Below are positions 7,192 through 54,025 of a stretch of DNA of 64,000 nt, one piece after another. The notes under the pieces were generated by a model. The model was not told where the DNA came from, did not search any database, and saw only the letters and a program-made list of their open reading frames with translations. This DNA comes from Candidatus Latescibacterota bacterium (GTDB lineage Bacteria > Latescibacterota > UBA2968), in NCBI GenBank assembly GCA_965262145.1, contig OZ253501.1, forward strand, positions 4,260,946-4,324,945, written 5' to 3'. The translations under genes were made by a program, and so were the position numbers. Position 1 is the first letter of the stretch. Every line of letters starts with the position of its first letter.

Positions 7192-7203
7192 AAAGGAGCC
7201 TTT

Positions 7204-12289: not shown

Positions 12290-12300
12290 TGCGCTATCCC

Positions 12301-34088: not shown

Positions 34089-34248
34089 CCATCCCCAATC
34101 GGAAAAAGGAAGTAATTATTTAGGTTTTTGTGGTCGCGTAGGAGGGAAATCCTTTTCCCGACCTTGATCGCGGCAGGGATGCCGCTCCTACAGCATCCTT
34201 TCCCTCATCTTTCAGATGACCTAACCTAATAAAAAAGGGATACCTCTC

Positions 34249-34842: not shown

Positions 34843-34849
34843 GGATAGG

Positions 34850-35191: not shown

Positions 35192-35246
35192 AATTTACAT
35201 CCCGCAAACCAGAAAGGGTTACGCCATCTCGACGTAACCCTTTATA
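35163..35246. repeat. Left copy of an imperfect direct repeat (NHase accessory 3' end plus terminator) flanking the TA module
   Basis: It pairs with 36135-36243. The shared sequence is ggcattcacgac...cacgaccatca.cacga.cactaaaa...aaagggttacg...gacgtaaccctttt. Confidence 0.7.
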
Positions 35247-35248
35247 TA
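35216..35248 (+). terminator. Rho-independent terminator of the NHase operon
   Basis: The hairpin is gggttacg...cgtaaccc followed by tttatataatttt. Confidence 0.65.
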
Positions 35249-35366
35249 ATTTTAGCTGCCTGATATGACATTTTTTAGAATTACAAATGGGGACCTGAAT
35301 TGACTATCCATAGCGATTGTGGTATGTTTTTATTTATGGTACACACTACTAACAAAGGAATAAAAT

Positions 35367-35660
35367 ATGGCCCAAATGATACAGTTGCAGAACAGTGATG
35401 AAGCGTTACGCCGGATGGTCGAAACGTGCCGGAACCAAAATGAAGAATGCGTAATTGAGGATAATCAGAATCGTCCTGTAGCGGTTATGATGCCCATTGA
35501 ACGCTATGAATCCTATCAAGCTTATCTGAAGCAGAAGGAGAAAAATTTTGCGATTCTTGATACAGTAGCTGAAGATTTAAAAAATTATGAACCAGATTTT
35601 ATAGAGAGTCAGATCGAAAAAGCAGTACAAGAAGTGAAAGCTGAGGCTAAAAAACAATAA
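35367..35660 (+). CDS. Type II antitoxin, Phd/YefM-like
   Basis: It is 97 aa with 'RPVAVMMPIERYESYQ'. It lies 15 nt upstream of a PIN toxin gene in an AT-rich context. Confidence 0.5.
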   Translation: MAQMIQLQNSDEALRRMVETCRNQNEECVIEDNQNRPVAVMMPIERYESYQAYLKQKEKNFAILDTVAEDLKNYEPDFIESQIEKAVQEVKAEAKKQ

Positions 35661-35675
35661 TTGGTAAACTAATTT

Positions 35676-36128
35676 ATGCCCCGTGTTGTACTTGATGTAA
35701 ATGTTTTAGTGAGCAGTTTGATTAATCCCCGAGGTTCTACAGGTCAAATACAGGTCGCGTGGCGGCGAGATGAAATTAGTGTGATTACTTCAAAGGCTAT
35801 TATAACCAAAACTGAGGAAGTTTTACGTCGTCCTCATATTTTTGCGTTGTTTCCTATAGCTCGGGCAGAGGCGCGTATTCAGGGACTGCTCGCATTACTT
35901 CAAAACCAGACAATTCTAACTCCTCACTCCCTCAACCTGATGGTCATAGAAGATGATCCCGAGGATGATACCATTATCATAGCAGCAGTTGAAGGCAACG
36001 CGGATTGTATTGTTTCTGGTGATCGTCATCTTAGGAATTTGAAATCATATCGGGGTATTCCAATTCTATCACCTGCTGAATTTTTGGCACAGTATAAGAT
36101 CGAAAGCCCAAACATCCACGATAGCTAA
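35676..36128 (+). CDS. PIN-domain toxin (TIGR00305-type putative TA toxin)
   Basis: 'MPRVVLDVNVLVSSLINPRG' is the typical family start. It has conserved acidic residues (D7, E, D near 'SGDRHL'). Confidence 0.7.
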   Translation: MPRVVLDVNVLVSSLINPRGSTGQIQVAWRRDEISVITSKAIITKTEEVLRRPHIFALFPIARAEARIQGLLALLQNQTILTPHSLNLMVIEDDPEDDTIIIAAVEGNADCIVSGDRHLRNLKSYRGIPILSPAEFLAQYKIESPNIHDS

Positions 36129-36134
36129 ACACAA

Positions 36135-36243
36135 GAGCAACCATGGACGGCATTCACGACGGTCACGACCATCATCACGATCACTAAAAATCTACAACAA
36201 CAAAATAAAAAGGGTTACGTCGTGGTGACGTAACCCTTTTTTT
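36135..36243. repeat. Right copy of the direct repeat, with a chimeric 14-codon mini-ORF (36143-36187, MDGIHDGHDHHHDH) and a second terminator hairpin
   Basis: It starts with 26 nt identical to the nthB start region (33409-33434). It then continues with a diverged copy of the accessory-gene end. The hairpin gggttacgtc/gacgtaaccc is followed by a T-run. Confidence 0.7.
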
Positions 36244-36291
36244 GTTAGCCATCTGTTTTTAAACGCTGATTTCTGAACACTAAAATTTTTG

Positions 36292-37455
36292 TCAGTTGAT
36301 CATTCCGGCCTGAAATTGCTCGAATAAAATTTCTTCTAATCGACATTTTAAAGTTCTGGGTTTGAGAAATAGCTGTTTTTCTTCTTCGGGCGTACAGATA
36401 CCCAGAGGGACTGCATGTGCAAGCCGCGTGAATTTGTACTGCACGCCATCAAGTTGAAATTTGTAATTCTCAAGCTGGGCGTATAATGTGGGCAACTCAG
36501 GCCACTCGCGATAATTTTCTCCGTGTAGGTCAACGAAGAAGGGGTATTTGATATCCCGTTCCAGCTTCAAATGCCAATTGAATCCCCACGCGGGATTTTG
36601 AAGTAATACGCTCCATATAGCTTCCTGTTCAGAATACGAAAAGTACGTGTTCGTGTACCATATAAAGCCGAGCCAGCACATGCCACCACCCCGGGCATTG
36701 ATATCCACCCCTCCAGCCATCACCTTCCATTCTGGTCTGTGCGCTGCATTTTGGAGAAATAATTCAGATGCAAACGCATGGGTACGCGGAAACCAGCAAA
36801 ATCCCGAGAAGTCTGCATCTGTCCCAATAAATCCACCCTTATACGAATCTGAGAGCCAGCGAACGTGCTTACCTGTCTTAAGCCGTGTAAAGTTGATCCC
36901 TGTGTGAATAAAATTTCTAAAATTTGATTCTGTAAGATACGCATCTGTCCAGTTGGACATACTGCCATCGGCGCGAAAGAACGTGCAACCTTCAACGGTT
37001 GTCCTGGAAAAGTCTGCCCCCAGCATTTGGGCATGATCAAAGGTACAATCCAAAAATTTGGCTTCCCGAAAAATCGCTCTGGTGAGATTGGCCCTGCTAA
37101 AATTACAACGAGTGAAAACCGATTGTGAGTGATCTGAAAAGGATAGACTGAGGCCGGAATAATCCTGGTCCGTGTGCTCACAATTTTTCCCCTTTCTCGA
37201 TACCTCGGCGGAAAAACCATTCGCATTCAAAAGGTAATCTATCGATATCTTGCCCTTTGTTTCTTCTTTGATAAATTCGACCAACTTCGACGCTGTGCAG
37301 TGTTGAAGTTTAACATTTCCTTCCTTTGCACGATGCACTGTTGAACGCGGGACACCTGAACAACTTGTGACATACTCTAACGTAAGCCAATCATTCTGCT
37401 CGAATAGCCAACACAGTTCACGCGATATTCTCTGACTTAAACTTTCTTTCTGCAC
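36292..37455 (-). CDS. Pentapeptide-repeat protein with N-terminal HTH-like segment
   Basis: The tandem A(N/D)LXX pentapeptides are 'ANLTRAIFREAKFLDCTFDHAQMLGADFSRTTVEGCTFFR'. It is 387 aa. Confidence 0.65.
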   Translation of the reverse strand: MQKESLSQRISRELCWLFEQNDWLTLEYVTSCSGVPRSTVHRAKEGNVKLQHCTASKLVEFIKEETKGKISIDYLLNANGFSAEVSRKGKNCEHTDQDYSGLSLSFSDHSQSVFTRCNFSRANLTRAIFREAKFLDCTFDHAQMLGADFSRTTVEGCTFFRADGSMSNWTDAYLTESNFRNFIHTGINFTRLKTGKHVRWLSDSYKGGFIGTDADFSGFCWFPRTHAFASELFLQNAAHRPEWKVMAGGVDINARGGGMCWLGFIWYTNTYFSYSEQEAIWSVLLQNPAWGFNWHLKLERDIKYPFFVDLHGENYREWPELPTLYAQLENYKFQLDGVQYKFTRLAHAVPLGICTPEEEKQLFLKPRTLKCRLEEILFEQFQAGMIN

Positions 37456-37778
37456 TTATTTGCCCTCCTCAAAATGGAACAAAATGGAACAACAGTAACT
37501 TGCTTATTCGCTGGTTAAAATTACATTGCGAATTGTAGCTAAGCGATACTCGAGTACAGCATGGCAAAAAATCATTCACACACGATGTGGTTTACGTTGT
37601 GCATTTGGCTCAAGGAGACTGTCTGGCAGAACCTGTACCAATTCAGCTATTATTTTAAATTCTATATCGGCTCACGCATACGGTTGCATCAACTTACAAA
37701 AAAATCTCTTCTTACAAAACCAATTTTTGCACGACTGCGTAACATCGGTTATTTCAACTAAAAATAGGATTTGACCAT

Positions 37779-38987
37779 ATGGGCAGACTAAAAAGCCAGT
37801 TTCTATTTTATAGTCAACACAGTATTGGCGTCGGACATTATATGAGAATACGCCAAATATTAAAGGCGTTGGCAGGTGAAACAGTTCATTTTATTAATGG
37901 TGGCGCTGAGGTGGAGGCACTTGAGGATATTGCAGATGTAACGGTTACTCATTTACCTACGGTAAGATTTGATCCGCAAACAGGTGCTCTCAATGCCGAT
38001 GAAGATGAATTGAAAGTGCTGCTGAAGAAACGTGCTGAATTGGTAAGACAGACGTTTGAGCAGGTTCAGCCCAGTGTTATGGTTATTGAATTTTTTCCCT
38101 TTGGGCGCTGGAATTTAAGGTCTGAATTGCTTCCGATTTTAGAGACGACCAAATTATCAATACCTCGTAGGACACGGTTGGTTTGTTCGCTTCGGGATGT
38201 GCCTCAAGAGTCTTTTAAAGAAAGTTATGAAATGCGGTGCTGTGCCGTTTTAAATACATACTTTGATCATCTCCTCATACACTCTGATCCTGAATTTTTT
38301 CATCTGAAGGACAGTTTTCCATCTTGGAAAAAAATAAAAATCAGTACGCATTACACGGGATATGTTTCTATGAAGTATAAGAGTGGGGTATCAGACGAGG
38401 TGGATTGTGCAATAAGACCAGAAGATAAAATCATCCTCGTCACAGCAGGCAGTGGGGCTGATGCTTATGGCACATTTGATTATTTGAAGGCTTGCATACA
38501 AGCAAAGGTACTTCTTGGTCAGCATATAAAAGTAAAGATGTTGATTTATACCGGTTGTTTTTTTAGTGACGATAGATATGCCAAACTCAAAGCATTCTGT
38601 CAAGATCAAGATATTATCCTTAAAAGATTTACCTCTCAGATTTTATACTGGATGAAACGAGCGGAACTTTCTATCAGTCGAGGTGGCTATAATACATGCA
38701 TGAACATTCTTGAAACTGGGGTGCGTTCTGTGACTGTCCCTGTAGGATTGTCCAATGATCAGAATAATCGGGCAAAAAAAATGGCTGCTCTCAATCTGAC
38801 ACACAAACTCGATGAGGCAGATTTGACGCCTGAAAATCTCTGTAATACGATGCTTCAGGCATTAAAATCCCCCCCCGCAAAACATCAAATACGTCTCGAT
38901 GGTGCGTACCACACAGCCGAACTTTTAAAGAATCTGAAGCTTTATAGTAACCAAAATGCACACTGCCAAATGAAAGCCACAGCATGA
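37779..38987 (+). CDS. Glycosyltransferase, COG4671/GT28-C-like
   Basis: 'FYSQHSIGVGHYMRIRQILKAL' matches the predicted-glycosyltransferase family start. It is 402 aa. Confidence 0.6.
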   Translation: MGRLKSQFLFYSQHSIGVGHYMRIRQILKALAGETVHFINGGAEVEALEDIADVTVTHLPTVRFDPQTGALNADEDELKVLLKKRAELVRQTFEQVQPSVMVIEFFPFGRWNLRSELLPILETTKLSIPRRTRLVCSLRDVPQESFKESYEMRCCAVLNTYFDHLLIHSDPEFFHLKDSFPSWKKIKISTHYTGYVSMKYKSGVSDEVDCAIRPEDKIILVTAGSGADAYGTFDYLKACIQAKVLLGQHIKVKMLIYTGCFFSDDRYAKLKAFCQDQDIILKRFTSQILYWMKRAELSISRGGYNTCMNILETGVRSVTVPVGLSNDQNNRAKKMAALNLTHKLDEADLTPENLCNTMLQALKSPPAKHQIRLDGAYHTAELLKNLKLYSNQNAHCQMKATA

Positions 38988-40207
38988 ACGTGTGTCTCAT
39001 TACATTTCAATATCCACCCATGATTCGCGGTGGTGTGGGAAGTGCGACCCATAGAATTGCAAAAAATCTGGCAACCGTTGGAGTTTCTGTTCATGTAATT
39101 GCTCCCGGTCCTCATTCTTTGGGAACAATAATAGAACCAAATTTTGAATCGGGTTGTGTCGTACACAGGACATATCCCGCGCTGGGATCTTATAGCACTA
39201 ACAACCCAGATCAGTTAAAGGCCGTAGGAGATTATATTGCAAGCCTCCATGAGGAAATAGAATTCGATTTGTTTCACGGGATGTTCCTGATTCCTTCAGG
39301 TCTTGTCGCTACTATCGTCGCACGAGAGGTTGGGAGACCACTCATCATAAGTATTCGCGGTAATGATGTGGAAGTTTTGCGGTATAGTTTGATACATGGC
39401 GGCTCTGTAAAGTGGGTTTTAGAGTCCGCTGATCTTGTGACTTCGGTTACTCCCGATTTGTTAGACAAGGCAAAGAGTATTGCATCTATTTCTCAGGGCC
39501 AACCCATCGTCAATGCTTTTGATACGTCTCTGTTTCCAGAGGGGAGATTAACCGATTTAGCAAAAGAATTGCCCTGGAAATTGAGCTTGTTTGCCAAACG
39601 TTTTCTAAAGGCAAAGTCTCGGGGCAGTCCAGTGATCGGGACAACGGGCTTGATGCGCTACAAAAAAGGATTTCATCTGCTGCTTCAGGCATTTCGTGAA
39701 TTTTTGGATCAGCATCCCAAGGCTTTATTATTGCTGGTAGGTGACTTTTTAGGGGTAAGTCAGAGAAAGCAAATGTTGAAAATGATTAAATCTTTGGGTA
39801 TCAAACGCCAGGTGTTTATTACTGGACCAGCACCGCATTCTCATGTGCCCATGTGGATGCGCGAGATAGATATCTTTGCATTTCCATCTCTTTATGAAGG
39901 TTCGCCAAATGCGTTGATTGAGGCAATGGGCCTTGGTCTGCCAATTGTCGCTTCGGATATCTGTGGCGTGAACGATGTAATATCCGACGGTATAAATGGT
40001 TTGCTCGTTGAACCCAATTCGGTTGATGCACTGTTAAATAAACTGCTGTTTTTGAGTGAAGATAAGGCACTACAGACACAGTTAAGTGAATCTGCTAAGA
40101 AGACAATCGAAACCCAATTTTCTCCAATTGATGAAGTGGAAACCTGGCTGGATATGTACCTCTCGGTTTGTAGAACACGTTTTTCAAACACGCAAACCAC
40201 TGAATAA
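38984..40207 (+). CDS. Glycosyltransferase family 4 (GT4, group 1)
   Basis: 'ITFQYPPMIRGGVGSATHRIAKNLATVGVSVHVIAP' is a GT4 N-terminal domain. The C-terminus has the 'EGSPNALIEAMGLGLPIVASD' E-x7-E region. It overlaps the preceding GT gene by 4 nt. Confidence 0.85.
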   Translation: MNVCLITFQYPPMIRGGVGSATHRIAKNLATVGVSVHVIAPGPHSLGTIIEPNFESGCVVHRTYPALGSYSTNNPDQLKAVGDYIASLHEEIEFDLFHGMFLIPSGLVATIVAREVGRPLIISIRGNDVEVLRYSLIHGGSVKWVLESADLVTSVTPDLLDKAKSIASISQGQPIVNAFDTSLFPEGRLTDLAKELPWKLSLFAKRFLKAKSRGSPVIGTTGLMRYKKGFHLLLQAFREFLDQHPKALLLLVGDFLGVSQRKQMLKMIKSLGIKRQVFITGPAPHSHVPMWMREIDIFAFPSLYEGSPNALIEAMGLGLPIVASDICGVNDVISDGINGLLVEPNSVDALLNKLLFLSEDKALQTQLSESAKKTIETQFSPIDEVETWLDMYLSVCRTRFSNTQTTE

Positions 40208-40244
40208 AAATGTCGGTTGTGAATCTTTTGGTGTTGAACTGGAA

Positions 40245-40344
40245 TGAGGGAATTCTTCAGAAGGGGCGGTTCCATTATCTATGCATAGCATCAAAAAGAA
40301 GAACACCCTTTTCCGGTTTTATTTTTTTGAAAGGAGGTGATATT
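40245..40344 (+). promoter_or_regulatory. Conserved 5' leader/promoter region of the small Cys-rich protein gene (copy A)
   Basis: About 95% identical to 50143-50238. It contains the perfect palindrome CTATGCATAG and the SD GAAAGGAGGTGATATT ahead of the ATG. Confidence 0.6.
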
Positions 40345-40698
40345 ATGACTAAAAGACGGAAAATTCTGACGTTTTGTGCCGCTCAGGTTTCAATGATTGC
40401 TCTCGCTCTTGGATTTGGCGGCAATCAGCAAGCCCAGGGTCCTTATGCCAAACTGTTTAATCAGGCTTTTGGTGTGAAGAATGCAGAGGCTTTTTACCAT
40501 TATGAAGCTTGTGGAGAAGTGTGTGTCTGGGAGGACCCGAATCATTCGTTCTGTTCTGATGCCCTAGCCGTATCAAGCGACTGGTGTGGAATAGAATTCG
40601 GACCTGCCGGACCTGAGTGTAGTGATGGTTACAGTGAAGACTGTGACCCAGCCCTCAATGAAACGCCTGGAGGAGAAGAAGAAGATGACGAGTCTTAA
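40345..40698 (+). CDS. Small secreted 6-Cys acidic protein, paralog A (117 aa)
   Basis: It starts at MTKRRKIL behind a strong SD. It has a signal-peptide-like N-terminus, six Cys in the mature part and an acidic tail EEEDDES. The N-terminal 48 aa are about 90% identical to paralog B. Confidence 0.6.
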   Translation: MTKRRKILTFCAAQVSMIALALGFGGNQQAQGPYAKLFNQAFGVKNAEAFYHYEACGEVCVWEDPNHSFCSDALAVSSDWCGIEFGPAGPECSDGYSEDCDPALNETPGGEEEDDES

Positions 40699-40822
40699 GA
40701 TATCGTCTTCAAAGCGTTTTTAACTCGCCCCTTGATATTATACCGTCTAATGGGGTGAAAAAACTCTCCACTCCATTAGCTAACTCTGCCTATCAGAATC
40801 GTATCATCCAAAGGAATGCACT

Positions 40823-43177
40823 ATGAAAAAGCAATTCATAATTCGCATGGGATTGATTATGCTGACGTGCTTCTTTGGTACTAGTGTGTCCAAAGGTGAA
40901 ACAACAACAGATGCACTGTTTCAGGCCGCCGTGGAACAAGTTGGAAAGGTGACGAGTGAGGAAAGCATCAAAGCGTTTGAGGAGATCATTTCTCAAGACA
41001 GAGATTACGCACCTACGTACAACGAATTAGCGAAATTGCATCTGCTGGATTACAGCGTGAATGGCAGGCAACGTGCCGCACAGATGATTCACAAAGCGAT
41101 TGTGATTGATCCTGACAACCCTGAATATCAACTGACGCGAGGAAAAATCTGGTGGGCACAGGGCTTTCGCTTTCGGGCGTTAACCCAATACGAAAACGTG
41201 AACGAAAAACATTCGGACAATACGGAAGCCCTCAATAGTGCGGGTATGTATTGGGTATATGATTTCCTGGCACAAACTGATAGAAGAAGTCAACATCATT
41301 CAAAAGATTTCAAGCTATTTGCCCAGGAAGCCAAACGAGAAGCAGAACAAACTCTGCGAAAAAGCATTCAGTTGGATGCGACCAATCAGAAACCTTATTA
41401 TTTGCTGGGCATACTCTACTTTGAAGATGAGGATTGGAGCACCTTTCAAGCCTTGATGCAAGACCTCCACGCACAATATCCAGATGACAAAAATGCATTG
41501 TTATTTTCTGGCCTTGCTCACTATCAGCTTGGTGAATACAATAAATCGCATGAATACTATCAACGCGCTTATGACTTGATGAGTCTTGAAGAACGCGAGT
41601 TGCTCGAATCTATTGATCTGCTTATGCCAGAAAAAGATCATGCATCCCGCGATACAACGCAGACAATTGATGAATTATTAGAACGCGAGATGTTTTGGAA
41701 GAGCCAGGATCCGCTCTATTTATCTGATTTCAATGAAAGGAAAATGGAACACTTTGGCCGCATGGCATACTCGAATTTGCGGTTCAGGCGATTTTCTGAT
41801 AATGTCGAGGGTTGGCAGACAGATATGGGAAAGACCTATATCAAATTCGGAAGATATAGACGTAGAATGTTAATGTACAAATTCGCAGAAGGAATGACAG
41901 AGTTCTGGTATTACGAAAAATTCCAGTTCAAATTTTGTGGCAGTGGTGCTGATCGTTGGGGTTTTTGTGGTGGTTCATGGTATGGTATTACTCAGCGCCG
42001 GTCAGGGGTAAGTGCCTTCGAAGAATACCGAGAAGGGATTGATTTTGCGATGAGACGAACCAATTTTGCCCTTCTGCTAAGTACACTTAAAGAAGCCTCG
42101 CATCATATATTTAAAAAAACAGCACAGCGGTTTGTAGATCCGTATTTGAAACGAAAATACACCCTTCCCTATCAAATCGCGGCCTTTGAAGAACAAGACA
42201 GCGTGCGGATTGAACTCAGTTATATGATTCCAAAAGACCGATTAGAAGCCAATCCCGAAACTGATGAAGTGAGCTTTTGGGATGGTGTGTTCTTATTCGA
42301 TGAGCACTGGAATGATGTGTATAACTATCGCAAATCTGTGAGCTTCGCACTACCACCTCCCATGCCAGCCGAAAACGCAGCCGCGCAGCATCGTAACGAT
42401 CACCTGCTGGTCTCGCGCATGTTGTCTGTGCCGCAAGGCAACTATCATTTTTCGGTGGAATTACTGGATCAGACATCCGGCGCAATTGGTATCGTCCGCA
42501 ATGAGGAGCAGTACGTATATGATGATGAGAGCTTTCACCTGAGTGATCTTTTGGTTGGAAGCAATATTCAAGCGCGGAATGCGTTGCCAGAAGGCCGCAA
42601 CGACCTGATCATCACCCCCAATCCTGTCCGTACATTTTCACAGTCTGAACCGGTCTTTATCTATCTGGAACTGTATGATCTCCAACGCGACGATTTTGGC
42701 AGCACGAAGTATGAGATCTCCTACACCATTGGCAAGCCAGAGGTAGGTACGCTTTCACCCACATTATTTGCGTCTCAAAATGTGATTGAAATGATGGGCA
42801 AAACAGAGATTGATCTACGTAGTGGCATAGCAGATCACATAGCCGCCGAGGGCTTGCCGGGCGGGCGGTCACAGGATAGTGATGAGATCAGCATATTTGC
42901 CGACAGCGATATATGGGGCGAGACGAAGGTTTATACCAGTGGCGGGCAGGTCCAGCACATCGCTGCTGAGGGCTTGAAAATCAAGCGATCAAAAGATGGT
43001 GATTTGACGCGAACCGTGACAGCCAATTACGAAGGTAATCGAGAAGATGATTTCACGTATTTGCAGATCGATGTGAACCAGGTGCCTGAAGGGATTTATC
43101 AATTGACGATATTGGCGAGGGACAAGCGGACTGAGCAGACGGATAGGAAATACGTTTATTTTCGCATTATTAATTAA
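40823..43177 (+). CDS. TPR plus GWxTD-domain protein, paralog A (784 aa)
   Basis: It has a signal peptide and N-terminal TPR-like repeats. The motif 'VEGWQTDMGKTYIKFGRY' matches GWxTD. It is about 75-80% identical to 50755-53169. Confidence 0.75.
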   Translation: MKKQFIIRMGLIMLTCFFGTSVSKGETTTDALFQAAVEQVGKVTSEESIKAFEEIISQDRDYAPTYNELAKLHLLDYSVNGRQRAAQMIHKAIVIDPDNPEYQLTRGKIWWAQGFRFRALTQYENVNEKHSDNTEALNSAGMYWVYDFLAQTDRRSQHHSKDFKLFAQEAKREAEQTLRKSIQLDATNQKPYYLLGILYFEDEDWSTFQALMQDLHAQYPDDKNALLFSGLAHYQLGEYNKSHEYYQRAYDLMSLEERELLESIDLLMPEKDHASRDTTQTIDELLEREMFWKSQDPLYLSDFNERKMEHFGRMAYSNLRFRRFSDNVEGWQTDMGKTYIKFGRYRRRMLMYKFAEGMTEFWYYEKFQFKFCGSGADRWGFCGGSWYGITQRRSGVSAFEEYREGIDFAMRRTNFALLLSTLKEASHHIFKKTAQRFVDPYLKRKYTLPYQIAAFEEQDSVRIELSYMIPKDRLEANPETDEVSFWDGVFLFDEHWNDVYNYRKSVSFALPPPMPAENAAAQHRNDHLLVSRMLSVPQGNYHFSVELLDQTSGAIGIVRNEEQYVYDDESFHLSDLLVGSNIQARNALPEGRNDLIITPNPVRTFSQSEPVFIYLELYDLQRDDFGSTKYEISYTIGKPEVGTLSPTLFASQNVIEMMGKTEIDLRSGIADHIAAEGLPGGRSQDSDEISIFADSDIWGETKVYTSGGQVQHIAAEGLKIKRSKDGDLTRTVTANYEGNREDDFTYLQIDVNQVPEGIYQLTILARDKRTEQTDRKYVYFRIIN

Positions 43178-44569: not shown

Positions 44570-44658
44570 AATTAAGCGCCCATTCCTCAGTCAATGGACC
44601 GATCAAAGGTCACATATCTAAAGCTATGCTGTCTGTCATAAAAAGGTAGAGACTGAAC

Positions 44659-45561: not shown

Positions 45562-45591
45562 TCGACTGTCTTCACATGTGAGTAGATACAC

Positions 45592-47277
45592 ATGAACATC
45601 TTGTCAAACATAGAGTTTTTTAAAAGAAATTACGTTGCGGTAGAAATATTGAGTGTGCTCTTTGCCTTTTCCTTTGGACTATCTTACGGATTTGGCGACC
45701 AGGCGATTTATTTGCTACCCGGCATGCAGTTATACGATCCCACTTTTTTGGCGCGCGATTGGTATGTGTCCGAGGTTGTGCATTATCATGTCGTGTTTAA
45801 GTATCTCGTTTATCTGTTGATGTACCTGGGCGCGTTAGAGTGGTCAAGCTCGATTTTGAATCTGGGATTGATGGTTTGGGTAGGTTTCAGCATTTATCGC
45901 TTGCTTAGTGGGCTTTATCAACAAACACTGGTACCGTTTTTATTAACACTTGCTCTCCTGCATCTGATGGTTAATACCGATATTCTCACACATCGTTTTT
46001 TACCTAACTGGCTGATTCCTAATGGTATCGCGACAGTTTGCTTTTTGGGAGCACTTGCTGAGCTGGTTGATTTGGATAGACGACGAGAATTGCACCTGTT
46101 CTTAAGTGGCCTGTTTTTTGGCCTGAGTGTCGTAATTCACAGTGCGTTTCTGTTTTTTTTAGTGCCATTTTTTGTGGGAATTTCAATCTGTTTACGCCGA
46201 AGCTTTAATCGCAATGATGTTTTTATTTTTTTATTGCCTTTTTGTTTGCTGGCTTTGCTGAGTATGAAAATACATGCTCAGTTTATATTTTCCACAGTAG
46301 GCGAGATAGATCGTTTAGATGAGATAGCGCGATTACGTATTCCGCATCATTACTTACCCCAGAATTGGGGTCAGGAAATTGTGTTGCCTTTTTTTCTCCA
46401 TTTGGCTTTGGGGATATGCGGACTACTGCTGCATTGGCCCAAGGGACGCCAAGCTGTTCTTATCTTGTATTCAGCAGCTTTGATACTGATCGGTTTGATA
46501 TTTGTCTGTCTGACTACAGTTCTGATTTTTATTCCACAAATTGCTTTGCTTCAAGGTTATCGGTTCAGCGGGTTACTGTCCTTTTTGTGTTTTTTATTTT
46601 TTTCTGGCGGCATGGGACAAGTTTTGATTGATAGATGTTTTGATTCACGGCGTTTGATTCTTTTATGTATCAGTGTTGGATTGGTTTATCTATTGGATTT
46701 CTATTTTGCTATTGGACTCCTGTTATTTTTGAATGTATGCTTTATTCTCGACTTGATGAGCAGTTCTCAGGTGTATGAAAGGGTCTATAAGAGATTCGTT
46801 CTTGTGACATCGGTATGTTTTTTAGCTGTCTGTTTAAAAGGCAATTTCCCAATTTCTCGAGTCGAGCTTCTGCATCAAGATCAAAAGGCGCCTTTATATG
46901 AATGGGTTCGTACACATACAGACAAAGATGCACTATTTGTCGTGCCTGTAGATAGAGTGACACAATTCCGCCTGTTTGCACAACGGGCGATTTTGATCGA
47001 TTGGAAAGGATGTCCATATTTCCCGAGCGAATACGATGTCTGGCTTAAACGCCTGCAAGATGTTACCGCATCAACTGAACTCAGTGCCCGAAGGATGCGT
47101 GACCAGGGCTATCGAAAAATGGATGCTGCGCGTGCTAAATTCTTGTCAGATACATACAATGTCCAATATATCGTGATGTCGCTTGGAAAATCAAATAATA
47201 AGCTCTCTCTTCGGCCTTTTGATCTGGTCTATGCCAAAGATGGATATGCAGTTTATCGTCTGCAGAGTAAACTTTGA
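45592..47277 (+). CDS. Polytopic membrane protein with C-terminal soluble domain, possible GT-C-fold glycosyltransferase
   Basis: It has at least 12 predicted TM helices. An Asp-containing first loop 'FGDQAIY' follows TM1. The C-terminal ~170-aa hydrophilic domain follows the last TM. Confidence 0.5.
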   Translation: MNILSNIEFFKRNYVAVEILSVLFAFSFGLSYGFGDQAIYLLPGMQLYDPTFLARDWYVSEVVHYHVVFKYLVYLLMYLGALEWSSSILNLGLMVWVGFSIYRLLSGLYQQTLVPFLLTLALLHLMVNTDILTHRFLPNWLIPNGIATVCFLGALAELVDLDRRRELHLFLSGLFFGLSVVIHSAFLFFLVPFFVGISICLRRSFNRNDVFIFLLPFCLLALLSMKIHAQFIFSTVGEIDRLDEIARLRIPHHYLPQNWGQEIVLPFFLHLALGICGLLLHWPKGRQAVLILYSAALILIGLIFVCLTTVLIFIPQIALLQGYRFSGLLSFLCFLFFSGGMGQVLIDRCFDSRRLILLCISVGLVYLLDFYFAIGLLLFLNVCFILDLMSSSQVYERVYKRFVLVTSVCFLAVCLKGNFPISRVELLHQDQKAPLYEWVRTHTDKDALFVVPVDRVTQFRLFAQRAILIDWKGCPYFPSEYDVWLKRLQDVTASTELSARRMRDQGYRKMDAARAKFLSDTYNVQYIVMSLGKSNNKLSLRPFDLVYAKDGYAVYRLQSKL

Positions 47278-47332
47278 TATGGCTGTCCTTTATTTTTCTC
47301 TCCTATTAATGCTTTGTCGTCAGGATTGAGAT

Positions 47333-50122
47333 ATGAGAACACTAATCGGGATAATATGTCTATTTTTTATTGGGTGTAGATATTTTAATCCATCTATAGA
47401 TGTGGATTATACGGTCAAAGTGATTGATCCTGAAAATCAAATTTTTGAGATTGAAATGGCGATTCAAAACACGCCTACAGGCGATGTTATTTTGCAACAA
47501 CACGCTTATGCAGAATTTGTACCGATAAAAAAAATGGATGCTCTCCATGCCGATGGATCTCAAGTTGAGATTATTTCCCACAAAAGGAGAAAGAGTGGCA
47601 ATGGACCCCGCCTGACAGAAGTGCAGTATATTCTCAAGAATCCAAAGCAAGGCTCTGTTTTGTTGAGGTATCATATCCAAGTTGGAAAAGAAATATATGC
47701 CGAGCATGGGAGACAATCTTTTCATACCTATGGTTATATGAATGATCAATTTGCACTCATTTCGAGCCGCAATTTATTCCTACTGCCAGAGTTAAATATA
47801 AATCAAATAAGAGCAAAATTTGAGCTGCCTTCAGGATGGGTACTAGGCGAACAATGGATAAAAAAAGAAGGGTGGTTAGTCCCTTCAGCAGAATCCAAGT
47901 ATCTAAAAGAGGAATTTATTAATGCCAATTTTGTGATGGGGTTGCTCGACCATAAAAGCAGAAAAATTGGTGATACTGAGATCAGCGTTTTTGTCTTGCA
48001 AGAATGGAACCAGAATCGAAAAGAAAAATTATATGAAACAGCTTTTACTCTATACAAAGAAGCCGCCTCTATATTTAATGCAGAAGGTGGGGGGAAGTAC
48101 ATCTTTGGTTTTGTGCCCGAAACGAACGAAGGACTTGAGATTTTCACAACTGAAAATTCTTTTTCCCAGGGTTTAGCAATGAGTCCGCCAACTCCAGAAC
48201 GTTGGTTGTTATGTGCAGAGAGTCTTTTAAATCGCTGGTTGATTTATCCTACATTTCGCATGGAATACGAAGATAGAGATGATTTTTGGTTGCTTGATGG
48301 TATTCCGGCTTATTATGCGATCCGAGTATGCGATAAAATTGGGGTTTTGGATGGCGACGCATATTTAAGGGCAGAAAAAGACAAATTTGTCACGGGTATG
48401 GTGCAACGAAGCTTCAGGCGTCTTATCCACGCTTTAGCCAATGATTCAAGTGCCGTGACAGTTTATCATCCTTTGACTGATGTGCGTCATTTGCAGACTA
48501 AAGGGACGTATGCAGAGCATCGCAAACGGGTTGCGCCATATCTCGTTGCATTTATGGACGAGGAATTGAAACGGCAATCAAATAGCAAATACGATTTTAC
48601 TCACATTCTTCAGTATGAGTATGCAAAACGTAGAAATTTGAACTTGCAGGCAGACTTAACGCATGTGGTTGGTAAAGAAATTTCTAATTTAGTAATGAAT
48701 TATTTGCACAACGGAAAAAAAATCGTGCGAAGAATTAATGCCGTTGCAGACAGGCCGCCTTCTTTTCCTCAAAATAAACCGACAGGTATCACGCAGAGCC
48801 AAGGCGATACGCTTCAAATACTACTGACTTCTCATACACGCGGATTTCTGGAGCATTGTGGCTGCAAAGTCAATCAAAGTGGCGGTGTTGCTCGACGGGC
48901 AAAATATATCAAAGAATTACGGCATCAAAATCCAGACCTTTTGCTGATTGATGCAGGAAACTTTTTTTCCTGGGATAAACAGACTTTTCGCATCACGGAG
49001 TTTACAAATAGAGAATTAGATTTGTATTTATCTACAATGGATATGATGGATTACGATCTGGCTACGATATCCTATGCAGAGCTTTTCTATGGCGACAAAC
49101 TTTTGAAAGCAAAAGCCGAGAATATAAAATTTCCATTTGTCTGTGCAAACATAACCCAGGACGGTGTTCCAATTGCGAAGCCTTATGTTGTCTTGACGAG
49201 TGGTACATACAAGGTCGGGTTTTTGGGTCTTTTTCAACCCCCGATCCAACGCGGCGATAAACAGTTTCAAATTTACCAAAAACAGATCCAGAATTTAACG
49301 ATTTTAGATCCTATCGAGACCGCGCAACAATACCTACCTGATTTGAGCAAAAAATGTGACGTTGTTTTTATTGTTGGAAACCTGGACCCTATCCTAATTC
49401 GAGAGCAATTAATTAATATTCAAGGAATTGATGCTGTTATTTCTATTACCAGCAGTCAAGCTTTTGTCTATAAAAAAGATGAACAGTTCGTACACATTAA
49501 GCAAGATGAGTCTGGATTCCGTAATCGTATGCTTGTTATATATCCTTATCTTGAACTCTATGGCATCGAAGACTTGAAGATTGCTATCGATAAAAATAAT
49601 CAAATCATCGGCGGTAGGAGAACACCTGTTTTTTTAAGAGAAGAAATCGGAGAAGATTTTGAAGTCAAAAAAGAGATAGATGCTTTTTATACGAAAAATT
49701 TTGCTGAAGAATCAAAGATTGATCCTATAACGGAATGGAATCAGTATTTTGAACAAATAGATTTTGTCGGAAGTGCAACCTGCCAAACATGTCACCCTCA
49801 ACAATTTGCCCAATGGAAAACGACAAAACACGCGTTTGCGATGAATACATTGCTCGACAAAAAAAGACAATACCAGCCTAAATGTGTTATTTGTCATGTA
49901 ACCGGTGCAGGGTACGAAACAGGCTATAAAATGGGAGACCTACAGCATCCATTGATCAATGTTCAATGTGAGGCTTGCCATGGCCCGGGGAAACGTCACA
50001 GTCAAAATCCAACACAGCACCGTCTTATAAAAACGATACCTGAGCAACTTTGTACAACTTGCCACGACTCAGAGCACTCCGACTTTGATTTTGCCACTTA
50101 TTACCCTAAGGTTAAGCATTAG
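47333..50122 (+). CDS. Lipoprotein with metallophosphoesterase (5'-nucleotidase-like) domain fused to a C-terminal tetraheme cytochrome c
   Basis: It has the lipobox-like 'LFFIGC'. The central 'LLTSHTRGFLEHCGC...LLIDAGNFF' is calcineurin-like. Four CxxCH motifs are present (CQTCH, CVICH, CEACH, CTTCH). It is 929 aa. Confidence 0.7.
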   Translation: MRTLIGIICLFFIGCRYFNPSIDVDYTVKVIDPENQIFEIEMAIQNTPTGDVILQQHAYAEFVPIKKMDALHADGSQVEIISHKRRKSGNGPRLTEVQYILKNPKQGSVLLRYHIQVGKEIYAEHGRQSFHTYGYMNDQFALISSRNLFLLPELNINQIRAKFELPSGWVLGEQWIKKEGWLVPSAESKYLKEEFINANFVMGLLDHKSRKIGDTEISVFVLQEWNQNRKEKLYETAFTLYKEAASIFNAEGGGKYIFGFVPETNEGLEIFTTENSFSQGLAMSPPTPERWLLCAESLLNRWLIYPTFRMEYEDRDDFWLLDGIPAYYAIRVCDKIGVLDGDAYLRAEKDKFVTGMVQRSFRRLIHALANDSSAVTVYHPLTDVRHLQTKGTYAEHRKRVAPYLVAFMDEELKRQSNSKYDFTHILQYEYAKRRNLNLQADLTHVVGKEISNLVMNYLHNGKKIVRRINAVADRPPSFPQNKPTGITQSQGDTLQILLTSHTRGFLEHCGCKVNQSGGVARRAKYIKELRHQNPDLLLIDAGNFFSWDKQTFRITEFTNRELDLYLSTMDMMDYDLATISYAELFYGDKLLKAKAENIKFPFVCANITQDGVPIAKPYVVLTSGTYKVGFLGLFQPPIQRGDKQFQIYQKQIQNLTILDPIETAQQYLPDLSKKCDVVFIVGNLDPILIREQLINIQGIDAVISITSSQAFVYKKDEQFVHIKQDESGFRNRMLVIYPYLELYGIEDLKIAIDKNNQIIGGRRTPVFLREEIGEDFEVKKEIDAFYTKNFAEESKIDPITEWNQYFEQIDFVGSATCQTCHPQQFAQWKTTKHAFAMNTLLDKKRQYQPKCVICHVTGAGYETGYKMGDLQHPLINVQCEACHGPGKRHSQNPTQHRLIKTIPEQLCTTCHDSEHSDFDFATYYPKVKH

Positions 50123-50142
50123 AGAAATTCGAACTGAAATAA

Positions 50143-50238
50143 GCGGGTTCTTCAGAAGGGACGGTTCCATTATCTATGCATAGCATGAATATAGAAGAAC
50201 ACCCTTTTCCACTTTATTTTTTTGAAAGGAGGTGATAT
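50143..50238 (+). promoter_or_regulatory. Conserved 5' leader/promoter region (copy B) with CTATGCATAG palindrome
   Basis: About 95% identical to 40245-40344. It includes the SD GAAAGGAGGTGATATT. Confidence 0.6.
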
Positions 50239-50629
50239 TATGACCAAAAGACGGAAAATCCTGACATTTTGTGCTACTCAGGTTTCAATGATTGCCCTCG
50301 CTCTTGGTTTTGGCGGCAATCAACAAGCCCAAGGCCCTTATGCCAAACTGTTTAATAATGCTTTTGGTGTGAAGGATGCAGAAGCACAAGTGGCTTGGGA
50401 TGAAATACAGTGTGGGGTATGCATGGAGGAGGAATGGGTATATACGAACGAGAAGGGGGAAGAATTGAATGGGTATGCTTCTTGGTGTTCTGATGCCCAA
50501 GCGGAACCAGGTGACTGGTGTGAGTATGATGTAGTTACAGGGCATTGTACTGGTGGTGGCGGAGAAGAAGCATGCGGTTATGATGAGTACGGCGATGGTG
50601 GTGAGCATGATGATGACGACGAGTCGTAA
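50239..50629 (+). CDS. Small secreted 6-Cys acidic protein, paralog B (129 aa)
   Basis: It starts at MTKRRKIL behind the same SD. It has a conserved signal/leader, a divergent core with six Cys, and an acidic tail 'EHDDDDES'. Confidence 0.6.
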
Positions 50630-50754
50630 AGTGAACATCTCACAACTTTTTTAGCTGCTCCTTGATGTTATGCTATCTAATGGGAGGGGAAAAATTTTCC
50701 CTCCCATTAGCTCACTTCCGCCTGTCAGTGTCGTATAAGCAAAAGGAATGCGCT

Positions 50755-53169
50755 ATGAAGAAGCGATTCGTCATTCATATCGTACTGATTACGTTGACCA
50801 GTCTCTTTGGTTCTAGTTCGTCTAGAGGCGAAACAACAATAGACTCGCTATTTCAGGTGGCAGAGCAGAAAGTTGGACAGGTGGGTCGGAAGGAAAGCAT
50901 TGCGGCATTTCAGGCTATTCTATCACGCGACGACGAGTATGCCCCTGCATATAACGCATTGGCCAAACTGTATTTACAAGCCAATACCGTGAATGACCGC
51001 CAGCGTGCTGCTCAGATGATTCTCAAAGCAATTATGATTGACCCAAATGACGCTGAATATCGCCTGATGCGCGGGAAAATCTGGTGGGCACAGGGCTTTC
51101 GATTTCGGGCATTGAGCCAATACGAGAATGTGCTCAAGAAAGATTCGAATAATACGGACGCCCTGTATGGTACGGGTATATTTTGGCTGTATGATTTTTT
51201 AGCACTGAAAGATGAACCCCGAAATTTTAGGAAATATGCTCAAGAAGCCAAACAAGAAGCGGAGCAGGCTCTGCGAACAAGCATCCAATTGGATGCGACA
51301 AATCAGATGCCGTATTATTTGTTGGGTATGTTTTATTTTGAAGATGAGGATTGGAGGGCTTTTCAAACATTGGTGCAAGACCTACACGCGCATTATCCAA
51401 ATGACAAGAATGCGCTGTTGTTCTGCGGGCTTGCCGCCTATCATCTTGGCGAGTTCAATGAATCGCATGACTATTATCAACGCGCCCTTGACTTGATGAG
51501 TGTTGAAGAACGAGAGTTGCTCGAATCTACCGACCTGCTTGTGCCACAAGAAGATCATGCATCCCGCGATACGACGCAGATGATTGATGCGCTATTGGCG
51601 AAGGAGATGTTCTGGAAACGCCAGGATCCGCTCTATTTATCTGATTTCAATGAAAGAAAAATGGAACACTTTGGCCGCATGGCTTATGCTAATCTGAGGT
51701 TCAAGCGATTTTCGGATGATGTCGAAGGGTGGCAGACAGACATGGGGAAGACCTATATCAAATTCGGAAGATATAGACATAGAAGATCCAGTTATCTTGG
51801 ACGGGGCGAGACCTGGTTTTATGAAACATTCAAGGTAGCATTTTGCGGCAACGGGGGTGACCGTTGGCGTTTTTGCGGTGGTTATGAAGGAGGCGGTGTC
51901 AGTTTCTACTCATCTACGAGTAGCGCGGAAAGCGGTGGAATTTTCAACTCAAATACGGAAGCTTTTCTTTCTAAGCTCTTCGGTAGTCGAGATGGTCCAA
52001 GGGATGAATATACGGATGCAGGCGAAGTGAGGCGTCATTTTCGACGAAGACGTTTGAGTTTTAGAACACCACTGGCCCTCGAAGAACCCTCACATCATAC
52101 CTTCAAAAAAATGGCCCAACGCTTTGTCGATCCGTATTTGAAACGAAAATACACCCTCCCCTATCAAATCGCGGCCTTTGAAGAACGAGATAGCGTACGC
52201 GTGGAACTTAGTTATATGATTCCGAAAGACCGCTTAGAATCAAAACCCGAGACTGGCGAAGTGGGTTTTTGGGATGGAGTATTCTTATTTGATGAGCAGT
52301 GGAATGACGTGTATAACTATCGCAAATCTGTGAGCTTCGCACTACCGCCTCCCCTACCAGCCGAAAACGCCGCCGCGAGGCATCGCAACGATCACCTGTT
52401 GGTCTCGCGTATGTTATCCGTCCCTCAAGGCAACTATCATCTTTCCGTGGAATTGTTGGATCAAACATCCGGTGCGATAGGCATTGCCCGCGATGAAGAG
52501 CAGTATGTCTATGACGTTGAGAGCTTTCACCTGAGTGATCTACTGGTCGGAAGTAATATCCAAACGCGACACTCTTTCCCCCAAGGTCGTGATGACCTGA
52601 TCATCACCCCTAATCCTGTCCGAACGTTTTCACAGTCTGAATCAGTTTTTATCTATTTGGAATTGTACGATCTCAAACGCGATGATTTTGGCAACACAGC
52701 TTATGAGATTTCCTACACCATCGGCAAGCCAGAGGTAGATACGCTATCGCCCACATTATTCACATCTCAAAATGTGATTGATACAATGGGCAAAACAGAA
52801 ATCGATCTGCACAGTGGACAAGCAGATCACATAGCCGCCGAGGGCTTGCCGGGCGGGCGGTCACAGGATAGTGATAAGATCAGCATATTTGCCGATAGTG
52901 ATATATGGGGCGAGACAAAGGTTTATACAAGTGGAGGGCAGGTCCATCACATCGCCGCTGAGGGCTTAAAGATCAAGAGATCAAAAGATGGCGATTTGAC
53001 CCGCACAGTAACAGCCGATTACGAAGGTAATCGAGAAGATGATTTCACGTATTTGCAGATCGATGTGAATCAGGTGCCTGAAGGGATTTATCAATTGACG
53101 GTATTGGCGAGGGACAAGCGGACTGAACAGACGGATAGGAAATACGTTTATTTTCGCATTATTAATTAA
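50755..53169 (+). CDS. TPR plus GWxTD-domain protein, paralog B (804 aa)
   Basis: It starts at MKKRFVIH, with the same upstream 'aaaggaatgc.ctatga' context as copy A. The motif is 'VEGWQTDMGKTYIKFGRY'. Confidence 0.75.
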   Translation: MKKRFVIHIVLITLTSLFGSSSSRGETTIDSLFQVAEQKVGQVGRKESIAAFQAILSRDDEYAPAYNALAKLYLQANTVNDRQRAAQMILKAIMIDPNDAEYRLMRGKIWWAQGFRFRALSQYENVLKKDSNNTDALYGTGIFWLYDFLALKDEPRNFRKYAQEAKQEAEQALRTSIQLDATNQMPYYLLGMFYFEDEDWRAFQTLVQDLHAHYPNDKNALLFCGLAAYHLGEFNESHDYYQRALDLMSVEERELLESTDLLVPQEDHASRDTTQMIDALLAKEMFWKRQDPLYLSDFNERKMEHFGRMAYANLRFKRFSDDVEGWQTDMGKTYIKFGRYRHRRSSYLGRGETWFYETFKVAFCGNGGDRWRFCGGYEGGGVSFYSSTSSAESGGIFNSNTEAFLSKLFGSRDGPRDEYTDAGEVRRHFRRRRLSFRTPLALEEPSHHTFKKMAQRFVDPYLKRKYTLPYQIAAFEERDSVRVELSYMIPKDRLESKPETGEVGFWDGVFLFDEQWNDVYNYRKSVSFALPPPLPAENAAARHRNDHLLVSRMLSVPQGNYHLSVELLDQTSGAIGIARDEEQYVYDVESFHLSDLLVGSNIQTRHSFPQGRDDLIITPNPVRTFSQSESVFIYLELYDLKRDDFGNTAYEISYTIGKPEVDTLSPTLFTSQNVIDTMGKTEIDLHSGQADHIAAEGLPGGRSQDSDKISIFADSDIWGETKVYTSGGQVHHIAAEGLKIKRSKDGDLTRTVTADYEGNREDDFTYLQIDVNQVPEGIYQLTVLARDKRTEQTDRKYVYFRIIN

Positions 53170-53322
53170 ACGATCAGTCCTCAGCCGATGGACCGGTCAA
53201 AGGTCACACAGCCTAAAGCTACGCTGTCTGTTATAAAACGGTCAGCATTCAGACGTACAGAGCAGCAACCGCTGATCCGGTTCAAATACTCCGACACAAA
53301 TGAACTCTGTGGTTGCTTTTCC

Positions 53323-54009: not shown

Positions 54010-54025
54010 ATGACTGGCATTCCAC

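Follow-up and report, generated by a model that had tools for sequence, protein, structure and literature searches.

Flexible or 'metagenomic' surface-glycan islands are known from Salinibacter ruber, Alteromonas, SAR11 (the hypervariable region, HVR) and Haloquadratum (PMC2800850, PMC3542563, PMC4535781). They occupy a fixed locus between conserved flanks and carry non-homologous cargo, and they combine low G+C content (GC), glycosyltransferase (GT) and envelope genes, insertion sequences (IS) and pseudogenes with the lack of an integrase. A region sharing these features was analyzed in a Candidatus Latescibacterota bacterium (assembly GCA_965262145.1, contig OZ253501.1, positions 4,260,946 to 4,324,945; this whole 64,000-nucleotide stretch is called the window, and it belongs to a metagenome-assembled chromosome of 7.1 Mb). 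The region spans about 18 kb downstream of a Co-type nitrile hydratase (NHase) operon and fits the description of 'metagenomic islands' for cell-surface glycans as low in GC and rich in pseudogenes (PMC2800850). With a probability of about three in four, it is a flexible, replacement-type island in a recombination-prone intergenic site between the NHase operon and a sulfatase gene of a sponge-type Candidatus Latescibacterota.

Occupancy of the site in sister species

A scan of species-representative genomes with the NHase β subunit placed the host in a Candidatus Latescibacterota lineage with many closed chromosomes and defined a set of 13 sister species (NHase β 90-94% identical). Several of the relatives were recovered from sponge metagenomes. 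The left flank DUF4159–TPR/peptidase–AKR–COX15–AP-endonuclease-like–tRNA-Leu–EamA–NHase is common to all 13, and the right flank runs sulfatase–MFS–DUF5686–D-Ser-dehydratase-like–MDH, so the site is fixed between conserved flanks as in the described islands. The site is empty in the closest relative, L003 (Jukes-Cantor distance 0.063), in which positions 10726-11722 align with window 34264-35251 and positions 11793-12516 align with window 53307-54030. Homology to L003 therefore stops at 35251 and restarts at 53307, which defines the island and places the predicted coordinates of 35250-53320 within 15 bp of the synteny limits.

35252-53306, no strand: accessory island by synteny, 18,055 bp, mean GC ~0.43; ~70 nt in its place in L003

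Not every genome is occupied. Seven of the 13 sister sites are empty (L003, L005, L007, L009, L010, L012 and L015) and consist of the NHase accessory gene and its terminator, ~70-150 nt, and then an intact or nearly intact sulfatase. Two sisters, L008 and L014, have unrelated ~2-kb inserts (an NHL-repeat protein and an AhpC-DUF3738 protein). The remaining four carry other AT-rich cargo (GC 0.37-0.47) that starts with an orthologue of the pentapeptide-repeat gene found in the window, and this gene is the sole homology between their cargo and the window island:

L011 and L013: GT28C-GT2-GT4-S8/DUF1611-AraC
L004: GT4-thioredoxin-like-IS256-peptidase_A24-like
L006: IS256-MacB/FtsX-AhpC

Non-homologous cargo thus occupies one site in different genomes. 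A neighbor-joining tree of ~7 kb of flanking genes scatters the island-bearing species, each with empty-site neighbors. The comparison with sister genomes, which the original prediction had proposed as a check, shows that the island is not present in identical context in all relatives and supports its reading as an accessory island. All occupied versions have low GC (0.37-0.47 versus 0.50-0.56 in the flanks). The envelope-glycan genes in the window encode GT-B enzymes, a GT-C-fold protein and a sulfotransferase.

Variation is not confined to the downstream side of the operon. L008 has an 878-aa TPR protein and a complete Phd/PIN pair (L008 6458-9987) between EamA and the NHase operon, displacing the promoter region, which makes the operon variable on its upstream side too.

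Composite architecture and remodeling

The island is a composite of a toxin-antitoxin (TA) pair, an NHase operon scar, a pentapeptide-repeat anchor gene, a seven-gene cassette that moves independently of the anchor, and an additional gene pair of diverged sequence. The predicted inventory (TA pair, pentapeptide protein, two GTs, sulfotransferase, GT-C-like protein, cytochrome-fusion lipoprotein and duplicated cassette) was borne out by Pfam, NCBIfam and Foldseek. The features from the NHase operon to the sulfatase are:

33417-35191, + strand: left flank, Co-type NHase operon (Pfam NHase_alpha E=1.7e-85, NHase_beta_N), with β at 33417-34088, α at 34249-34842 (CTLCSC motif) and the accessory/activator gene at 34850-35191 (His-rich tail), all on the + strand
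35205-35243, + strand: hairpin 1, the NHase operon terminator (D9 and I1 repeats; aligned with L003, L009 and L015)
35367-35660, + strand: Phd/YefM-like antitoxin, 97 aa (Pfam PhdYeFM_antitox E=6e-5; PHROG antitoxin family)
35676-36128, + strand: PIN_3-domain toxin, 150 aa (Pfam PIN_3 E=1.4e-16, 61.7 bits, cutoff 27)
36118-36187, + strand: NHase operon scar (D6 and D7; sequence read directly), spanning 36118-36246 with the second terminator
36207-36241, no strand: terminator hairpin 2, a diverged copy of hairpin 1 with a 15-pair stem (D9, I1 and I4; terminator scan)
36292-37455, - strand: pentapeptide-repeat protein, 387 aa (Pfam Pentapeptide E=5.7e-13)
37777-50140, + strand: seven-gene cassette, ~10.9 kb without the IS, on one strand with tight spacing (Pfam and NCBIfam), made up of the next seven genes
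37779-38987, + strand: GT28_C-like glycosyltransferase
38984-40207, + strand: GT4 glycosyltransferase
40345-40698, + strand: small acidic Cys-rich secreted protein, 117 aa
40823-43177, + strand: TPR+GWxTD secreted protein, 784 aa
44659-45561, + strand: sulfotransferase
45592-47277, + strand: DUF6798 membrane protein, 561 aa, predicted GT-C fold
47333-50122, + strand: probable lipoprotein, 929 aa, with an N-terminal half without assigned family, a 5'-nucleotidase-like part and a cytochrome c554-like part
43178-44569, + strand: probable IS701-family (IS4-related) element, 1392 bp (19-nt inverted repeats, I6; AATTAA target duplication read directly)
50131-53225, + strand: appended small-protein/GWxTD pair (D1-D5 and D8), with small2 at 50240-50629 and GWxTD2 at ~50755-53169
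53323-55314, - strand: right flank, sulfatase pseudogene (Pfam Sulfatase and SGSH_C), into which an IS5-family element (54031-54955) is inserted

The NHase operon and the genes upstream of it are conserved in the 13 sister species, and homology to the empty-site sisters stops at ~35251, just past hairpin 1. A functional tie between the island and the NHase, for example through ribosomally synthesized and post-translationally modified peptides (RiPPs) with NHase-like leaders, was rejected; the NHase is a regular Co-type enzyme that is present in all sisters with or without an island. The pair that follows has the layout of a type II TA system, with the 97-aa antitoxin gene ending 16 nt upstream of the PIN gene. 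The antitoxin scores 23.2 bits with PhdYeFM_antitox, under the gathering score of 29.8, and its PHROG antitoxin match is weak. A TA pair or its decayed remnant lies upstream (L008 and L004) or downstream (L006) of the NHase operon in other species.

Repeats flanking the TA pair had been proposed as the left boundary. These are not att-like repeats but two diverged copies of the NHase 3' end and terminator together with a copy of the β start, which is the arrangement of an operon scar. Directly after the PIN stop codon come three diverged repeats derived from the β start, the accessory-gene end and the terminator. Positions 36118-36160 are 91% identical to 33392-33434, which covers 25 nt upstream of NHase β and its first 18 nt (codons 1-6; D6), and 36149-36171 are 91% identical to 35165-35187, the last codons of the accessory gene (D7). 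The in-frame fusion of the β start with the end of the accessory gene lies at a 12-nt repeat, GGCATTCACGAC, which is present in β codons 3-6 and close to the 3' end of the accessory gene, and the resulting 14-codon mini open reading frame (ORF; 36143-36187) reads MDGIHDGHDHHHDH followed by a stop. Hairpin 2 is bidirectional and serves the scar on the + strand and the pentapeptide gene on the - strand. The His-rich tail of the accessory protein (35165-35191; alignment A1) is length-polymorphic among species (…IHDHHDH versus …IHDDHDHHDH and others); the long form occurs in the scar and the short form in the intact accessory gene of the window.

The TA genes of L008 and L004 lie directly upstream of an intact NHase operon, and their junction between the PIN stop codon and the β ATG is the same as in the window scar. 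This shared junction identifies the scar as the remnant of an NHase operon that was once downstream of the TA pair. The second operon was deleted by recombination across the 12-nt repeat, leaving the scar. In the TA-less genomes and at the intact operon of the window, a σ70-like promoter precedes β and is followed by ~45 nt homologous to the PIN 3' end. The order in L006 is that of the window: NHase, TA remnant, scar, terminator and pentapeptide gene. The intact operon may have come to lie upstream of the TA pair by ancestral tandem duplication or by homology-anchored, one-sided re-acquisition, and several two- or three-step scenarios (tandem NHase duplication flanking the TA pair; deletion plus homology-facilitated re-acquisition) all fit.

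The pentapeptide-repeat gene lies divergent from the cargo and encodes an N-terminal region, ~100 aa of repeats and a C-terminal domain of no assigned family. Its orthologues in L004, L006, L011 and L013 are 84-87% identical in nucleotide sequence and occupy the same site. The ratio of nonsynonymous to synonymous substitution rates (dN/dS) is 0.15-0.21, and the synonymous divergence (dS) of the orthologues is 0.37-0.45, about that of the flanks. The full-length architecture is rare (~10 of 1.84e9 representatives), and a JGI metagenome scan with the protein returned repeat-level matches only and no further cargo variants. The gene is a conserved, older, genus-wide anchor of the variable locus. 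It may regulate the adjoining cargo, whichever is present; no helix-turn-helix (HTH) domain was detected in it at significance.

The seven-gene cassette is not tied to this site. Its gene order is kept in L095 (87.6-91.3% nucleotide identity) and in L094 (88-92%), and partial copies occur on the short contigs L083, L084 and L096. The L095 copy has a response-regulator/AraC gene on one side and a BlaI-like/TPP-enzyme region on the other; the L094 copy, in which the lipoprotein gene is internally deleted, adjoins a SPOUT methyltransferase and the riboflavin (rib) operon. No pentapeptide gene, NHase or sulfatase lies near the cassette on the L083, L084, L094, L095 and L096 contigs, and the cassette is in none of the four other island-bearing species at the window site (L004, L006, L011 and L013). 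Nucleotide homology to the other sites is limited to 37777, the start codon of the GT28-like gene, through 50140. Between the window and L095, dN/dS is 0.15-0.23 for six cassette genes and 0.57 for the small protein, and dS is 0.22-0.55, similar to that of core genes between sister species. The cassette is under purifying selection and keeps its gene order at other sites; it is a discrete functional unit whose position in the chromosome has shifted within the lineage.

Regulatory genes recur in the vicinity. AraC-type regulators lie inside the alternative islands of L011 (19570-20433) and L013, a response-regulator/AraC-type regulator adjoins the cassette in L095 (2387-3067), and a gene of one of these two types adjoins the sole distant homologue of the 929-aa lipoprotein in L085 (1531-2220). 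Such genes may be a recurring regulatory partner.

The appended pair starts exactly at the cassette end and is 70-87% identical in nucleotide sequence to copy 1. The dS between GWxTD1 and GWxTD2 is 0.79 compared with 0.55 between the window and L095, and the second pair is therefore more diverged from copy 1 than cross-species orthologues are from each other. The two small proteins (40345-40698 and 50240-50629) share a near-identical 50-aa N-terminus (signal peptide plus QGPYAKLFN-AFGVK) and D/E-rich C-termini ending in …DDES, and their Cys-rich middles are highly diverged (dN/dS ~0.5). No homologues of the small proteins were found outside the cassette.

The cassette is split by the element at 43178-44569, which sits directly at the GWxTD stop codon. 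This element had been called IS4; a DDE transposase is present (Pfam DDE_5 and DDE_Tnp_1, above cutoffs), and the best NCBIfam match is the IS4-related family IS701 (IS701_3 E=2.4e-27; 95.8 bits, under the cutoff of 170). The element is absent from the conspecific L086, which has a clean empty site, and from L083, L094 and L095. The element in the sulfatase belongs to the IS5 family (NCBIfam IS5_3 243 bits, cutoff 110; 20-nt inverted repeats at 95% identity, I3; CTGAG target-site duplication) and is specific to this assembly, being absent from all sisters and L086. The clean empty sites in L086 define both the AATTAA and the CTGAG target duplications.

The IS5-disrupted sulfatase does not form the right boundary as had been predicted: the IS5 element lies 700 bp inside the sulfatase and is missing from L086, which bears the island. 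The boundary lies between genes, in the DNA directly beyond the 3' end of the sulfatase. Removal of IS5 in silico leaves a sulfatase ORF of ~354 aa compared with 478-487 aa in L008 and L014, and the gene is also short of ~300 bp of its 5' part, which encodes the N-terminal catalytic part. The L003 sulfatase carries a different, larger deletion.

L086 is a 5.68-Mb conspecific chromosome that is 96-99.8% identical in nucleotide sequence to the window and has the island at the same site in a different state. Its GT4 gene is split by a different IS (CTAA duplication), its small protein is frameshifted, and an IS3 element stands in place of window 45595-50634, a ~5-kb deletion that removes DUF6798, the lipoprotein and small2. 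The GT4 break is also found on several short contigs from other samples. The island is being remodeled within the species by insertion sequences. The L002 (7,108,786 bp) and L086 (5,677,935 bp) chromosomes, 96-99.8% identical at the locus, are 1.4 Mb apart in length, which reflects either flexible-genome or IS content that differs greatly between strains or an assembly issue.

Origin of the cargo and of its low GC

Exchange among members of the lineage is the mechanism that would best account for these data. Cargo would be swapped by homologous recombination in the conserved flanks and the anchor gene, illegitimate or IS-assisted joins would also exchange it, and import from a distant donor would not be needed. 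The low GC would then be the long-term composition of the accessory gene pool and not a mark of recent foreign origin.

The leading alternative is that the whole 18 kb is ancestral to the genus and vertically inherited, with the empty sites as independent deletions and the low GC as an intrinsic property. Part of the pentapeptide gene, a 3' fragment, survives in L008, and at least one loss event has therefore occurred at the locus. The flank-like dS of the pentapeptide orthologues, the cassette dS versus L095 near that of core genes between species, and the stability of low GC across diverged copies also agree with vertical descent. The other four island-bearing species have non-homologous cargo without the cassette, and L094 and L095 hold the cassette in contexts without the pentapeptide gene, NHase or sulfatase nearby. 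Vertical descent alone would call for seven or more independent complete losses and, on top of them, a wholesale replacement of cargo. Vertical inheritance with loss fits the pentapeptide anchor reasonably well but not the multiple contexts of the cassette, and as an account of the whole island it is unlikely.

Composition was analyzed in 1-kb windows. The flanks have a mean GC of 0.536 (SD 0.027, n = 42) and the 35-53 kb segment has a mean of 0.427 (SD 0.029, n = 18; Mann-Whitney p = 1.7e-9), with individual values of 0.52-0.58 until 35 kb and 0.38-0.48 from 35 to 53 kb. The sliding-window plot is clearly not uniform. The predicted fall from ~57% to ~40% is real and sharp at its left edge, but its size is ~11 points (54% to 43%) and not 17. 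An unbiased two-change-point likelihood fit returned 35176-54175. The left change-point refined to 35189, which is 2 nt short of the end of the NHase accessory stop codon (35191), and the right change-point is diffuse over 51.4-54.2 kb. A return to GC-rich sequence at 53.3 kb had been proposed; GC does recover, but it does so gradually, first at 0.48-0.51 and reaching 0.53-0.55 by 57 kb, with steps from 0.463 in the appended pair (copy 2) to 0.488 in the sulfatase with IS5 and 0.529 in the right core. The GC fall is therefore sharp at the left edge only. GC at third codon positions (GC3) is 0.34-0.51 in island genes compared with 0.53-0.70 in flank genes, and GC at first positions (GC1) is lower in the island as well.

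Tetranucleotide frequencies, part of the proposed check, split the island from the flanks mostly through GC. After GC normalization, z-score correlations were ~0.5 between island and flanks, 0.78 between the two halves of the left flank and 0.57 between the right and left flanks, and this signal is weakly discriminating. The tetranucleotide signature was dropped as a proof of foreign origin, the values for island/flanks and right/left flank not being discriminating on such short segments.

Low GC also occurs elsewhere in these genomes. A 395-aa hypothetical gene at window 60114-61301 has a GC of 0.467, well under that of its neighbors, and is kept in all sister species (88-92% amino acid identity), which shows that AT-rich genes occur in the core of the genome too. 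The ribosomal-protein region of L092 and L093 is also low (0.43-0.51). A + strand gene block at window 3700-9100 has GC 0.57-0.58 and GC3 0.64-0.70, above the rest of the left flank, and is a further sign of compositional heterogeneity in the genome.

Recent import from a distant low-GC donor would account for the sharp 11-point drop at the left edge, the large GC3 shift and the scarcity of homologues anywhere for the UshA/cytochrome and DUF6798 proteins. The lipoprotein is a near-orphan with 2 homologous clusters in 5.8e9, and DUF6798 has relatives in 12 clusters in 5.8e9. Such an import is nevertheless very unlikely. Every close homologue (85-99%) belongs to the one Latescibacterota-type gene pool, and the sole distant homologues are on high-GC contigs (L085, 0.58; L097, ~0.68). 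The cassette has a GC of 0.38-0.47 at every site with flanks of 0.48-0.56, and copies that differ by dS 0.2-0.5 are all still AT-rich with no sign of amelioration. The GWxTD proteins form a large multi-copy family native to these genomes, with at least four paralogues on the L003 chromosome. The closest paralogues adjoin the ribosomal-protein operon, arrayed with BlaI/BlaR1-like genes, and at 0.46 their GC equals that of the island copies. With the nearest homologues all inside the lineage and core GWxTD paralogues of equal GC, the low GC does not prove a distant donor or count as evidence for one; it is a stable property of the locus. The locus shows that even a marked fall in GC does not have to signal foreign DNA.

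The core arrays have their own organization. Tandem GWxTD-TPR modules (L092 1-12352; L093 1-12373) are accompanied by BlaI-like repressors and very large BlaR1(M56)–CarboxypepD_reg–thioredoxin fusions and adjoin galK/galET, greA and the rplQ–rpoA–secY ribosomal cluster. No counterpart of the small secreted protein lies beside the core GWxTD paralogues; it accompanies cassette-type GWxTD genes only.

A degraded integrative element, such as an integrative and conjugative element (ICE), a prophage or an integrase-type island using tRNA-Leu or another attachment (att) site, is highly improbable. A tRNA-Leu(CAG) gene does lie at 32251-32337, 3 kb left of the island, and a TA pair and transposases are present. 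Yet Pfam, NCBIfam and PHROGs searches of the island ORFs found DDE transposases but no tyrosine or serine integrase, as the original prediction had stated, and no excisionase, conjugation or phage gene. The 25-nt tRNA-Leu 3' end is single-copy even with 3 mismatches allowed, and the tRNA was rejected as an attachment site for want of a second 3'-end copy. EamA and the NHase operon, conserved in all sisters, stand between the tRNA and the island. A phage origin was rejected, with PHROGs giving only generic antitoxin, GT and pentapeptide matches, as was an anti-phage defense island, with no PADLOC match for any island protein. An Rfam search for hidden RNA elements found only the tRNA, and promoter and terminator consensus scans gave counts that were not above those of shuffles and were uninformative on operon structure. 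A chimeric join with DNA of a lower-GC organism, conceivable for a metagenome assembly, has a negligible probability, as L001 and L086, two more assemblies of the species and independent of this one, have the same junctions and, on the chromosomes of four other species, the pentapeptide gene lies directly against the terminator of the NHase operon.

Several points weigh against a flexible island carrying a coherent glycan cassette. Classical replacement islands are normally always occupied, and here seven of 13 species are empty. Insertion and deletion leave identical junctions, and the locus as a whole may thus have been either gained or lost. Once GC is factored out, tetranucleotide composition sets the island only weakly apart from the flanks, with the right flank also just 0.57. 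The other cassette-bearing contigs are tied to the lineage only indirectly, by a BlaI-like neighbor (82-84% nucleotide identity to Latescibacterota loci) and the NCBI name of P0127. No initiating phosphoglycosyltransferase or flippase is recognizable in the cassette.

Predicted function and comparison with known systems

An AlphaFold (AF2) model of the DUF6798 protein (pLDDT 71, pTM 0.73) was compared with the PDB by Foldseek. The top 32 matches are all GT-C proteins (E 6e-6 to 0.4, TM score up to 0.54) and include STT3, PglB, AglB, DPY19, ArnT, AftA, Emb and AftD, which predicts a GT-C fold for the protein. No PDB match was found at the sequence level. Two Asp residues, D36 and D56, show no variation among 11 homologues; both follow the first predicted transmembrane helix. 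A distant homologue likewise adjoins a GT4 gene. A model of the GWxTD protein, made with an exopolysaccharide-export β-barrel in mind, was too poor (pLDDT 44, pTM 0.26) for a fold search.

The most economical reading of the cassette is a sulfated envelope glycoconjugate system with assembly on a lipid carrier and transfer at the periplasmic face. A lipid-linked glycan would be made by two cytoplasmic GT-B enzymes and a 3'-phosphoadenosine-5'-phosphosulfate (PAPS)-type sulfotransferase. At the periplasmic face, DUF6798 with its GT-C fold would pass this glycan on to an acceptor, which may be a lipid, a polysaccharide or a protein, perhaps the secreted proteins encoded in the cassette itself, and the periplasmic phosphoesterase/cytochrome lipoprotein would have an accessory role. 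A bolder version, which is doubtful, has the cassette as a self-contained, horizontally shuffled periplasmic glycosylation and sulfation system in which DUF6798 places sulfated glycan on the fast-evolving secreted proteins of the cassette (small Cys-rich and/or GWxTD) as a variable, host-matrix-like coat, with the pentapeptide/HTH-like anchor as resident cargo regulator.

For a phylum represented by metagenomes alone, the locus resolves a flexible island to the base and displays its empty sites, its alternative cargos and its IS-driven decay within a species. The portable cassette pairs an uncharacterized GT-C family (DUF6798) and a sulfotransferase with near-orphan secreted or periplasmic proteins and may bear on sponge-symbiont surfaces. 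The scar records the loss of a duplicated NHase operon across a 12-nt repeat. Current understanding is not overturned; this is a well-documented and fairly ordinary kind of flexible island.

The individual components compare with described families as follows. The TA pair resembles Phd/YefM–PIN (VapBC-like) type II systems in its two small adjacent genes with the antitoxin first, a PIN_3 match above cutoff, patchy occurrence and placement at the edge of variable DNA; it differs from typical pairs in an antitoxin below the Pfam gathering score and in the NHase-operon-derived repeats that flank it. In its C-terminal half the lipoprotein resembles UshA-like/5'-nucleotidase enzymes and cytochrome c554, both by NCBIfam and by PDB sequence matches. 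Its C-terminal ~440 aa match NF041198, the UshA-like (seleno)protein family of a metallophosphoesterase with a multihaem c554-type tail (E=1.2e-65), and share the c554-like haem sites and a CGC motif where the family has CGU/CGC. At 222 bits the match is under the curated cutoff of 275 and falls short of family membership; only the C-terminal half matches, and the extra N-terminal half of ~490 aa is without detectable relatives. DUF6798 resembles the GT-C enzymes ArnT, PglB/STT3/AglB, DPY19 and Emb/Aft in its predicted polytopic fold (Foldseek E to 6e-6, TM 0.45-0.54), in the invariant D36 and D56 near the predicted first periplasmic loop and in the position of its gene beside GT-B enzymes. 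It differs in having no detectable sequence similarity to these enzymes, in the tiny size of its family and in its uncharacterized C-terminal DUF6798 domain.

Unlike O-antigen and capsule clusters, the cargo is without Wzx/Wzy/Wzz, an initiating transferase and sugar-nucleotide genes. The closest likeness remains that to the flexible islands of Salinibacter ruber, Alteromonas, SAR11 and Haloquadratum, from which the locus differs in two respects: the site is wholly empty in about half of the sister species, and the occupied versions are anchored by a conserved pentapeptide-repeat gene.

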